From the NCBI RefSeq assembly GCF_988242995.1, contig NZ_OZ547043.1: a stretch of 64,000 nucleotides of DNA; one strand, written 5' to 3'. A program made the position numbers. Shown piece after piece: positions 45,201 to 48,200 of the stretch. Numbering within the stretch: position 1 is the first letter of the stretch; each line of letters opens with the position of its first letter.

Positions 45201-48200
45201 TGATCAAGGATTATCAGGAGGAAGAACAAGAGAGCTTCCCGCCAGAGCAGTAACCCCTCCTGTAAATACGTTACTTCATTTTCACCTTTGCGGTGACCAA
45301 TAACGCCGTCAGCAACATCAATGTGCCGGACAACATCAACGGCGAAGTCAGACCAATATTATCCAGCGCATAACCGCCGATTGCCGCGCCACAGGTATTA
45401 GCAAGCTGAATAACCGCCACCTGAATAGACCCGGCTTTTTCTGCCTGATCGGCCAGTGAGCGGGTGATCCACGTTGACCAGCCGACAGGAACCAATGCAA
45501 AAGTTAGCCCCCAGATAATCGCCACGCCGGTAGCAACGATTTTATCGCTTCCCCACAACGTCAGCACCAACGCACTCACTGCCAGTATTAACGGCGCGCC
45601 CGCTAAGGCCAGTTTTACCGAACGTTTAAGAATGAACGACGAAAGCGACGTACCAATAAAGCTGGCGATACCAAAACTCAACAGCACCAGCGTTAAGCCA
45701 TCCACGCCGAATCCCGCCAGGTTCATATACACCGGGCGAATATACGTGAAGAAAGCAAACTGCCCGGCGAAAGACATGAAGATGGCGATCATCCCTGCCA
45801 TCACACCCGGACGTTGTAATAAGCGGAAAGTATTTTGTTTCTGATGCGAGGGTTCGCCTGGCAGCGAAGGCAATGATTTGATAATCCAGAAAATACACAG
45901 CACGCCCATCACCGCCGCCGCATTAAAGACATTGCGCCAACCGATAAGCTCGCCTAAAAAACTGCCCAACGGTGCGGCAATCACCAGCGCAATAGAAACC
46001 GCGCCGAAGATCACCGACAGCGCCTTCGGCACCGTACGCGGCGGCACCAGACGCATGGTCAGCGACGCCGACATCGCCCAGAACCCGCCCAGCGCCAGTC
46101 CCAGACAGGCACGACCGATTAAAAGCAAACTGAATGAGTTAGCAAAGGAAACCAGCAAGCAGGAGAGCGTCAGCAAAACGGCAAACAAAATAACAACGTA
46201 GCGGCGGTCAGTGGCCTGAATTGTCTGGGTAATAAACAAACTGGCAAACATTGCCACAAAGGCGGTCACGGTCACCGATTGCCCGGCAACCCCTTCCGAA
46301 ATGCCTAAATCCTGGGCCATTGGCGTCAACAAACTGACAGGCAAAAACTCAACGATAATCAGACAGGCGACGCAAAACGCCACCGAGAAAACGGCTGACC
46401 AGTTCGGTCGGGTGATGGCATCCGCGCCGCGGTTTTCGGCAATAAATTCACTCATGGTGTTACCCGTGGCATGTTTCAGGGGAAAAGCCGACCACTTTAA
46501 CATTGAAATGTGTGACGCATTTAACGTTTTTGCAACTTTTACGGTGTTGTGGGAAAAGTTCGAGGCTGCTCGAAGAAATAAAAATCATAGGGCAAGGTGA
46601 TATGCATTTTCGCGATTAGGTTGGGAATAAGGGATAAAGTATTGCACTTGGTGATATACTTTAATAACAGGACCTCAACGATATGCGCGTGTTTAAAACC
46701 AAATGGTTTGCAAGTGAAGCCAGGTCTCATGCAATAACAGATGAAGAGTTGTGCCGGGCCATTTTAGAAACAGAACAAGGTAAAGCTGATGCACTTGGCG
46801 GTGGCGTTTTTAAAAAGCGCCTTCACCAAAATCGTGAGCGTGCAATTATTCTGGCGAAAGGGGGAAGCAATTGGTTTTACACGTTTTTATATGCAAAACA
46901 GGATATGTCGAACATCAATAGTCAGGAACTGGCTGGGTTTCGTGAAATTGCAAAGCATTATGCCTTCCTGACGAAAGCCCAACTAACAGCAATGATTAAC
47001 ACTAAAGAACTGACAGAGATCTGCTATGACTGCAAAAACTAAATTTAAAAGTCCTGCATTTGAGGCTATTCACAGCGCAGCGGCTGGATTGTCCAGCGTC
47101 AATGCTATTTCTGCTGAAACGATGCGTACTTTTGACAAAGCCTGCCTGACCAGCGTGCAAGACTTACAACCTGTTGAGATAAAAGCACTGCGGGAAAAAT
47201 TAAAAGTGAGTCAGCCCGTCTTCGCTCACTATCTCAATACCAGCGTTTCAACTGTACAAAAATGGGAAAGTGGCGCTAAACGCCCCAATGGCATTTCATT
47301 AAAACTGCTCAGCATTGTGCAAAAACACGGGTTGGAGGTGCTGCTGTAAATAGAACGTAGATAATGCGTTCACCTACTGTCAGTTCCGATACCGGATGCG
47401 GCGTGAACGCCTTATCCACCCTACAGGTCAGGCGCGGTCTGTAGGCTGATAAGACGAAGCGGTTTTAATGCAGCCAGTGAACGCCCTCGGCAGGCTGAAA
47501 GAACGCGTTATAGCGCATCTGAAAAGCATTAATATCCTGCATTTCAGGTTCGGTTTCGCGCAGAAAACCCAGCGCCAGCCTGACCTGAGCATCGGTAATG
47601 GGAGCGGCAAGGCGGGCTTTTTGTAAAATCCGATGCCATTGCAGCAGGTTCTGTTCGCTACCATCGACAATGACAATTTGCCAGATGAGCAACACCTGCG
47701 CGGCGTTTTGCAGGTGCGACTCATCCGGGCGATGCAAATAACGTAAAAATTCGTCACCGGCTGACTTTCCCATTTGATCGACCATCGACTCCACGGGTAC
47801 GACATCGATATTCAGCCGATCGCTGAGACGGCGAATCGCTTTTCTGGCCCCGGATGTCAGCACCCGAAAACCAACCACAAACACTACCGCCAGCGTGGCG
47901 AGCATTATCCAGATCATGAGTTCTCCTGCGTAATCAGAACTCATGATATCTGGAAACCCTCGCCAGTTACTAATCCACCAGAATAATCTTCAGTGCAAAC
48001 AGAGCTGCGACCACCACCACACACAGGTTCAGATCGCGCCAGCGCCCGGTGCATACTTTCATGATGCAGTACGACATAAAGCCAAGTGCAATCCCTTCGG
48101 TGATCGAGAAAGTAAAGGGCATCATCACCGTGGTAATAAACGCAGGCACCGATTCGGTAAAATCATCCCAGTTAACGCGCGCCAGACTTGAGGTCATCAG

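Follow-up and report, generated by a model that had tools for sequence, protein, structure and literature searches.

A predicted chromosomal HigB2/HigA2-type toxin-antitoxin operon, probably an old resident and not a recent insertion, in the nepI-yicN spacer of Escherichia coli

Analysis of a 64,000-nucleotide stretch of contig NZ_OZ547043.1 (assembly GCF_988242995.1), here called the window, indicated that the pair of short, overlapping genes in the nepI-yicN spacer very probably forms a chromosomal type II toxin-antitoxin (TA) operon of the HigB2/HigA2 type, a type also known as the "relE-yiaG" module or as ToxP/AntitoxP, and that this operon is probably an old occupant of the site and not a recent insertion. 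The pair is already annotated and of an ordinary kind, and it represents no new mechanism or gene family. The gain in annotation is that the upstream gene can be named a HigB2-family (PF06296) toxin and that the "helix-turn-helix domain-containing protein" can be named a HigA2/YiaG-like antitoxin. A mildly new point, which is evolutionary only, is that the TA pair has diverged together with its core-gene neighbours, though such pairs are usually assumed to be mobile.

The ORF list bore out a preliminary description of the window in which a gene of 119 codons was followed by one of 107 codons (Table 1); their 17-nt overlap, positions 47026 to 47042, includes the toxin stop codon. The same description gave the nepI-yicN spacer as short in K-12, and by alignment it measured 210 bp there versus 1003 bp in the window, because 840 bp of the window are exchanged for a 41-bp filler in K-12. 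RefSeq/PGAP annotation in many strains gives a 117-aa toxin that starts at GTG 46689. Since ATG 46683 is kept in five genera and the GTG is not, cross-genus conservation backs the start codon of the longer form, and the 119-aa reading was preferred for the window.

Table 1. Features of the nepI-yicN spacer and its flanks (window coordinates)
Feature	Position	Strand	Description
nepI	annotated start about 46461	minus	flank of the TA pair
Strain-variable segment	46550..47389		840 bp; K-12-type genomes have a 41-bp filler instead (pairwise alignment with K-12)
Candidate operator	46635..46663	+	imperfect inverted repeat TAAAGTATTGCAC-ttg-GTGATATACTTTA
Likely extended -10, TGaTATACT	46652..46660	+	read by eye; overlaps right half of the palindrome
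Shine-Dalgarno AGGA	46669..46672	+	10 nt 5' of toxin ATG; ACAGGA kept in five genera
Toxin ORF	46683..47042	+	119 aa, ATG start (ORF list)
Antitoxin ORF	47026..47349	+	107 aa, ATG start (ORF list)
Degenerate REP-like arm	47357..47373		inverted repeat with resident REP 47403-47419; 17 nt, 88% complementary; predicted hairpin
REP pair (BIME), resident	47390..47461		adjoins yicN stop codon; aligns to K-12 with few mismatches
yicN	stop at 47465	minus	other flank of the TA pair

Only the HTH partner had been considered confidently classified in the preliminary description. That classification stood, but the restriction did not, as the upstream protein could be classified directly through PF06296. 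A Pfam search with the 119-aa protein matched this toxin family, and not a non-toxin family, over its full length (139 bits, where the cutoff is 27; E = 1.1e-40), with residues 1 to 113 lying on profile positions 1 to 120. Vibrio cholerae HigB-2, which has been placed in PF06296 (PMC11980606), scored 34.5 bits on the same model. The AlphaFold2 (AF2) model of the toxin (pLDDT 88.3) showed a RelE/BECR fold in which N-terminal helices lie against an antiparallel beta-sheet. Its five best PDB matches were all HigB2, including 8a0x_D, 5ja9, and 5mje (probability 1.0; TM 0.52 to 0.60), followed by Mtb HigB1, Cami1, YoeB, YafQ, and RelE; E-values in this fold search were modest, at about 3e-3. Sequence identity to HigB2 was about 20%, the hhalign comparison of the two was of low probability and partly misaligned, and searches of the PDB with the single toxin sequence or with a 36-sequence profile of close homologues gave nothing meaningful and did not retrieve HigB2. 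Since the direct search was empty, the case for HigB2 relies on three things: the common Pfam model, the fold, and a bridging Coxiella protein.

The active-site residues of HigB2 are K49, R51, R64, Y82, and K84 (PMC5416850; PMC10098735), and these aligned with toxin residues K44, R46, R53, Y70, and K72 in a mapping derived from a MAFFT alignment together with predicted strands and not from structural superposition. K44, R46, R53, and K72 were invariant in the toxin alignment with ToxP and HigB2. The Pfam match, the HigB2-like model, and the aligned active-site residues upheld the earlier reading of the upstream protein as the toxin in a HigB/HigA gene order. On family and modelled fold, the protein appears to be a PF06296 (HigB-2/"PF_RelE") toxin and a putative ribosome-dependent mRNA endonuclease. 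A literature search on three RefSeq accessions (the O145 toxin, the O145 antitoxin, and an E. coli HigB2 that appears in published work) found no experiment on the locus and only in-silico use of the last.

The antitoxin matched HTH_3 (Pfam, E = 6e-8), and its residues 46 to 102 matched HigA-2 from PDB entry 5jaa in a phmmer search (E = 8e-10), with 38 to 41% identity to HigA2. The eight best fold matches of its model were likewise all HigA2, with a TM of 0.8 and an rmsd of 1.5 Å over the C-terminal domain; this part (about residues 46 to 102) is an XRE-type HTH domain of the HigA2/YiaG type. Residues 1 to 45 were modelled as two helices with pLDDT values of 46 to 66 and are strongly conserved, even in comparison with Coxiella AntitoxP, and this part is presumed to be the toxin-binding segment. 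Scores fell below the curated cutoffs for NadS (41 versus 60), the MqsA family (41 versus 62), and Pfam MqsA_antitoxin (26 versus 30), and a zinc-binding CxxC N-terminal domain was absent from the antitoxin. The score against the YiaG model NF007481 (PRK10072) was 29 bits, far under the cutoff of 110, so the protein is termed YiaG-like and not a YiaG orthologue. Both TA genes are under purifying selection, with dN/dS values of 0.03 to 0.13 for the antitoxin and about 0.16 to 0.25 for the toxin.

Among known systems, V. cholerae HigB-2/HigA-2 (higBA-2; PDB 5JAA and 8A0X) shares with the present pair a PF06296 toxin of RelE fold, a toxin gene that comes first, and an antitoxin with a C-terminal XRE-HTH domain, and HigB2 is the nearest solved structure to the toxin, with the K/R/R/Y/K positions of the active site aligned. 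Compared with HigB2, the beta2-beta3 loop is shorter in the modelled toxin and the C-terminal part, made up of two helices and a strand (residues 80 to 115), is longer; for the N-terminal segment of the antitoxin, no sequence similarity to the corresponding segment of HigA2 could be detected. The two modules also differ in location: that of V. cholerae is carried as a superintegron cassette, and the pair described here lies in a core-genome spacer. The ToxP/AntitoxP pair of Coxiella burnetii plasmid QpH1 (CBUA0028/CBUA0027) has the same gene order and also has overlapping genes. AntitoxP is 53% identical to the antitoxin over its full length, N-terminal segment included, and ToxP is 32% identical to the toxin. 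The Coxiella pair, for which experiments demonstrated toxicity, rescue by the antitoxin, inhibition of translation, and binding to its own promoter (PMC10098735), is a plasmid-borne plasmid-maintenance module, whereas the present pair is chromosomal; the Coxiella pair compared here was assigned to CBUA0028/27 as the sole such pair annotated on QpH1.

Gerdes (2025) described "bicistronic relE-yiaG modules" in silico (PMC11980606), and the pair resembles these in having a PF06296 toxin gene 5' of a gene for a YiaG-like HTH protein and a modelled antitoxin with two N-terminal helices and a C-terminal HTH. That paper stresses toxins with extended disordered N termini, whereas the toxin here lacks an extended N terminus, because an in-frame stop codon lies 18 nt (six codons) 5' of its ATG. 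E. coli K-12 RelE/RelB and plasmid Rts1 HigB/HigA are related more broadly through the RelE/ParE superfamily and the BECR fold, and by analogy the present pair would share their general logic of ribosome-dependent mRNA cleavage and an autoregulating antitoxin. They belong to other Pfam families, however (PF05016 and PF05015), and in RelBE, unlike in the present pair, the antitoxin gene comes first and the antitoxin is of the RHH type. PvHigB differs from the toxin in having no C-terminal helix and different active-site residues.

Upstream of the toxin gene, a 7-N3-7 palindrome was the only strongly conserved block across five genera. Its core is ATTGCAC-N3-GTGATAT in the window and a perfect ATAGCAC-N3-GTGCTAT in C. 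koseri, Dickeya, and Yersinia; the E. coli palindrome thus departs at two positions from the perfect repeat of the other genera. The extended -10 element reads TGcTATAGT or TGcTATACT in other genera. Scanning for consensus -35/-10 elements and terminators gave no full sigma-70 site and no terminator, so the promoter call is drawn from conservation and from an extended -10 read by eye. The footprinted operator of V. cholerae HigA2 is a single 7-bp inverted repeat that reaches over the -10 (PMC11006873). The candidate here is likewise a single inverted repeat, over the likely -10, and from its conservation and this layout the palindrome is likely the operator of the TA pair, although its sequence type (ATAGCAC-N3-GTGCTAT) differs from that of V. 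cholerae (TGTACGC-N5-GCGTACA).

The biochemical steps of the mechanism that we propose are all carried over from characterized relatives. A single promoter with an extended -10 would serve both genes, and the 17-nt overlap would couple antitoxin translation to toxin translation. The RelE-fold toxin would enter the ribosomal A site and cleave translating mRNA via K44, R46, R53, Y70, and K72. The antitoxin would dimerize through its C-terminal HTH and neutralize the toxin with an N-terminal segment that folds upon binding; alone or with the toxin, it would also repress the operon at the inverted repeat. If the labile antitoxin were broken down or its supply not renewed, the free toxin would arrest translation. 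In evolutionary terms, the pair would have been inherited vertically in the nepI-yicN spacer since before the Escherichia/Citrobacter split and would have been deleted in K-12 and in about two-thirds of E. coli.

The preliminary description had instead taken the pair, together with a REP element, to be inserted; the corresponding rival reading is a recent horizontal acquisition by a short ancestral nepI-yicN spacer. The distribution within E. coli would fit such an event, as the TA segment is present in 1716 of 5426 complete genomes (about 32%) and missing from K-12 and the remaining 68%. Homologous pairs also occupy other, unrelated places in the chromosomes of Dickeya, Yersinia, and an Enterobacter-like genome, and plasmids of other phyla-level groups carry them as well (plasmid copies were not found in E. 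coli), which indicates that the module moves over long time scales. Nevertheless, recent insertion is very improbable, as comparison of the junction in other strains showed the opposite polarity: the nepI-TA-yicN order was found in Escherichia sp. E4742 (a cryptic clade), C. koseri, and C. freundii, as read from six exact-protein genomic contexts, so that the cassette has the same location in the outgroups. The 119- and 107-aa lengths and the 17-nt overlap were identical in C. koseri, C. freundii, Dickeya, and Yersinia. Synonymous divergence of the TA genes also equalled that of the flanks: pS was 0.17 to 0.21 for the TA genes and 0.19 to 0.29 for nepI and yicN in comparison with Escherichia sp., and 0.72 to 0.77 and 0.60 to 0.73, respectively, in comparison with Citrobacter.

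K-12 itself retains a relic of the toxin gene. Its 41-bp filler encodes ETEQGK in frame, which corresponds to toxin codons 29 to 34 (P of about 0.002), and the three nucleotide differences in the 19-nt aligned core are all at synonymous third positions. The protein-level score was equalled by 7 of 5000 shuffles and by 13 of 4921 random 41-mers of the window and was clearer than the marginal result at the nucleotide level (34 of 2000 shuffles); with a core of 19 nt the relic is short, and by itself its significance is only moderate. In related loci, the 2.5 to 3 kb flanking the pair on each side had no called integrase or transposase gene, no recombinase gene was found in or beside the cassette, and in the K-12 alignment neither junction (46549/46550 and 47389/47390) showed a target-site duplication or a terminal repeat. 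Thus, none of the marks of a recently inserted mobile cassette (a recombinase, repeats or a duplication, and an empty outgroup site) was found, and the REP/BIME is common to K-12 as well. Together, the shared site in the outgroups, the flank-like pS values, and the toxin relic argue for loss, and most likely K-12 lost the pair rather than other strains having gained it. The K-12 reference would then be a derived, deleted state with a recognizable relic, and "absent from K-12" should not be equated with "inserted."

Several observations raised the question of whether the toxin is still fully active. Residue 11 is Ser in the window allele, a position at which the family has Lys or Arg, through to K13 of HigB2, and E. 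coli alleles in circulation include some in which the ATG start codon has become ATA and some encoding a 95-aa frameshifted toxin. With Ser11 here and the lost ATG and frameshifts in other alleles, the toxicity of the window allele may be reduced. The toxin also evolves faster than the antitoxin (71% versus 84% identity to C. koseri), and the window and O145 toxins differ by three nonsynonymous and no synonymous changes, while their antitoxins are identical. These data, together with the loss of the locus from two-thirds of E. coli, would suit a decaying or domesticated module in which the toxin allele is weakly toxic or nontoxic and the pair survives mainly because its HTH protein acts as a regulator that is harmless or useful. 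We consider this unlikely, as the toxin ORF is intact with all five catalytic positions retained, its dN/dS is not neutral, and the N-terminal segment of the antitoxin is highly conserved, which is sensible only with a toxin to bind.

Taken together, the alleles may represent, though this is less likely than not, successive natural stages in the decay of a chromosomal TA module that has resided in a single core-genome spacer since a time before Escherichia and Citrobacter diverged, running within E. coli from intact through putatively attenuated (Ser11 and ATG-to-ATA) and frameshifted forms to a near-complete deletion that leaves six toxin codons. If true, such a series would permit direct study of how bacteria disarm and discard an addictive gene pair without dying. 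A frameshifted cassette of 78% identity at the same site in E. coli HS-02 was considered as an "intermediate"; it has long homopolymer runs typical of assembly error and was for that reason rejected as evidence of ancient divergence.

The same molecular mechanism might chiefly serve anti-phage abortive infection and not stress response or addiction. RelE/ParE-superfamily TA modules are increasingly linked to defence, according to the relE-yiaG paper (PMC11980606), and strain-variable presence is typical of defence genes. However, the toxin matched no PADLOC-DB model and the antitoxin gave only generic HTH matches, there are no neighbouring defence genes, and a module inherited vertically for so long within a single core-genome spacer does not resemble typical defence islands. 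A mainly anti-phage role is thus improbable.

REP-like palindromes do follow the pair, as had been described, and in 5425 of the 5426 E. coli genomes at least 40 places match the 75 bp from 47388 to 47462, a stretch predicted to form hairpins. REP/BIME elements were taken to be imperfect palindromes of about 35 bp with many extragenic copies per genome, and this stretch has that form. Since K-12 also has the REP/BIME at 47390 to 47461, this element does not contribute to the difference between the strains, and its supposed insertion along with the pair was not borne out by the alignment. An Rfam match to a microRNA was dismissed as spurious. The only REP-like part within strain-specific DNA is the degenerate arm at 47357 to 47373, and Rfam gave a sub-threshold match to naRNA4, which is REP derived, at 47356 to 47421.

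Between nepI and yicN, both on the minus strand, the window carries two genes that overlap by 17 nt in the ORF list (Table). Near-identical E. coli genomes have all four genes, nepI, toxin, antitoxin and yicN, annotated by RefSeq in unchanged order, and RefSeq already names the toxin "type II toxin-antitoxin system RelE/ParE family toxin". When the window was aligned with K-12, an 840-bp segment was found opposite a 41-bp filler, and the nepI-yicN spacer measured 1003 bp compared to 210 bp in K-12, so that the short K-12 spacer given in the preliminary description was correct.

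Table. Features of the nepI-yicN region and its surroundings (window positions)
Feature	Position	Strand	Remarks
Toxin ORF, 119 aa	46683-47042	+	six-frame ORF list
Antitoxin ORF, 107 aa	47026-47349	+	six-frame ORF list
Toxin codons 1-12	46683-46718	+	ATG start
+1-frame ORF	46789-46971		frame read by frameshifted toxin alleles
Segment replaced by filler in K-12	46550-47389		840 bp
7-N3-7 inverted repeat	46641-46657		ATAGCAC-N3-GTGCTAT; window form ATTGCAC-ttg-GTGATAT; conserved in five-genus alignment
Longer inverted repeat	46635-46663		encloses the 7-N3-7 repeat
Degenerate REP-like arm	47357-47373		
REP pair	47388-47462		75 bp
Perfect hairpin	46559-46574		TTCGAG-GCTG-CTCGAA
Giant ORF, 3709 aa	33940-45069	-	adhesin-like

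The preliminary description had also recognized a toxin-antitoxin (TA) pair in HigB/HigA-like order, and this was borne out: the pair is an ordinary accessory TA module whose toxin matched Pfam PF06296 over its full length (139 bits, E 1e-40). A survey of the RelE/ParE superfamily from 2025 places Vibrio cholerae HigB-2 in PF06296 and lists for this family a toxin gene that precedes the antitoxin gene and mRNA cleavage that depends on the ribosome (PMC11980606); HigB-2, whose sequence is that of PDB 5ja9_C, passes the threshold on the PF06296 model. Direct sequence searches of the PDB with the toxin were unsuccessful because identity is about 20%. The AlphaFold2 model of the toxin, built with 36 homologues, had a pLDDT of 88, and its best five matches among solved structures were all HigB2, followed by other RelE-fold toxins. 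In an alignment with HigB2 and Coxiella ToxP, the HigB2 active-site residues K49, R51, R64, Y82 and K84 (PMC5416850; PMC10098735) corresponded to toxin residues K44, R46, R53, Y70 and K72, with four of the five columns invariant.

The antitoxin carries an HTH_3 domain, matched HigA-2 in the PDB (E 8e-10) and gave a model whose best eight fold matches were all HigA2; its N-terminal 45 residues were modeled as two helices at low confidence, yet are highly conserved. Against the MqsA, NadS and YiaG models it scored under the curated cutoffs; the antitoxin is HigA2/YiaG-like and lies outside these three families. As a module, the pair corresponds to the "bicistronic relE-yiaG" type, which was described in silico. 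Over its full length the window antitoxin is 53% identical to its counterpart on Coxiella plasmid QpH1, which has a single TA pair; this pair, ToxP/AntitoxP, was shown experimentally to be toxic, antitoxin rescued, translation inhibiting and promoter binding (PMC10098735). The family, the architecture and the mechanism of characterized members are already known, and a literature search by three related RefSeq accessions retrieved no experimental work on the locus itself.

The region around the toxin start codon (138 bp, from 120 bp upstream to nucleotide 18 of the gene) was aligned for E. coli, C. koseri, an Enterobacter-like genome, Dickeya and Yersinia. Upstream, little was conserved among these five genera beyond an inverted repeat, a TGnTATAnT extended -10 element overlapping it, an ACAGGA ribosome-binding site and the ATG. 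The HigA2 operator, as mapped by footprinting experiments, has this layout too: one 7-bp inverted repeat that reaches across the -10 element. A consensus promoter scan found nothing, so the promoter is putative, as is the operator. All five genera keep the ATG at 46683 but not the GTG that PGAP uses in many E. coli genomes, which supports the 119-aa product in the window.

The pair had been described as inserted between nepI and yicN, but the polarity appears to be the reverse. Escherichia sp. E4742, C. koseri and C. freundii share the nepI-TA-yicN order, and synonymous divergence of the TA genes (pS of 0.17-0.21 versus E4742 and 0.72-0.77 versus Citrobacter) tracks that of nepI and yicN (0.19-0.29 and 0.60-0.73, respectively). 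Both TA genes are under purifying selection (dN/dS about 0.16-0.25 in the toxin gene, 0.03-0.13 in the antitoxin gene). Moreover, one frame of the K-12 filler (positions 751-791 of that locus), ATC GAA ACG GAA CAG GGC AAA GAT, encodes IETEQGKD, in which ETEQGK matches Escherichia-specific toxin residues 29-34; the 19-nt aligned core contains three nucleotide differences, all at synonymous third positions. In a six-frame protein-level test, scores at least this high arose in 7 of 5000 shuffles and in 13 of 4921 41-mers drawn at random from the window, and the filler is probably a deletion relic. Together, the shared synteny, the tracking divergence and the relic argue that the pair was ancestral at this site and was deleted in K-12.

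Nor was the REP element inserted along with the pair. The REP pair is a genuine dispersed element that matches 40 or more places in each of 5425 E. coli genomes out of 5426, and it also occurs at this position in K-12 with few mismatches; it is a resident of the nepI-yicN site that did not arrive with the genes. The sole REP-like DNA within the strain-specific segment is a degenerate arm that pairs with the resident REP and matched the REP-derived naRNA4 model below threshold.

The cassette was found in 1716 of 5426 complete E. coli genomes, always on the chromosome (no plasmid copies among the carriers) and as a single copy in all but one (1715/1716). A 4.9-Mb PLSDB record filed as an E. coli plasmid, NZ_CP141089.1, carries the cassette and, judging by its size, is evidently a mislabeled chromosome. 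The cassette of strain HS-02 (NZ_CP172818.1:3737085-3738065; 78% identical, annotated as frameshifted) was rejected as a divergent copy, since it deviates through long homopolymers of A, C and G, pointing to a local assembly or polishing error in this nominally complete genome. Other genera have homologous pairs with equal gene lengths and overlap at different sites, next to an EF-G paralogue in Yersinia and next to pabA in Dickeya and the Enterobacter-like genome. In the latter two, the pair lies immediately beside pabA-argD, the same alternative site, which is a second long-lived chromosomal location of the module. Distant relatives occur on plasmids of rhizobia and Coxiella. These homologues at other sites and on plasmids indicate that the module moves over long time scales.

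At residue 11 the window toxin has Ser, a position that is Lys or Arg in the family, ToxP and HigB2 (K13) included. Its allele differs from that of O145 strain RM9872 by three nonsynonymous and no synonymous changes, the antitoxins being identical. Codon 1 is ATA in RM9872 and E4742 (sites compared at positions 884-892 and 2495-2503 of the respective loci), so that PGAP starts at a GTG two codons later, giving 117 aa. Frameshifted 95-aa alleles (P0071 and P0118) reading ...AKGEAIGFTRFYMQNRICRTSIV... in the +1 frame suggest repeated toxin inactivation in E. coli. Ser11, the nonsynonymous changes, the ATA starts and the frameshifts are compatible with ongoing toxin attenuation in E. coli, and the locus could at most provide a naturally occurring series of decay stages of a TA module that stays at one chromosomal site.

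At the left end of the DNA specific to the cassette, where nepI and the toxin gene diverge, lies a perfect hairpin that is also kept in E4742. Directly beyond the nepI 3' end, where K-12-type genomes and E4742 have yicS/nlpA, lies a giant ORF with a LysM-like N terminus and about 27 tandem Ig-like repeats of about 100 aa, resembling an intimin/invasin-type adhesin.
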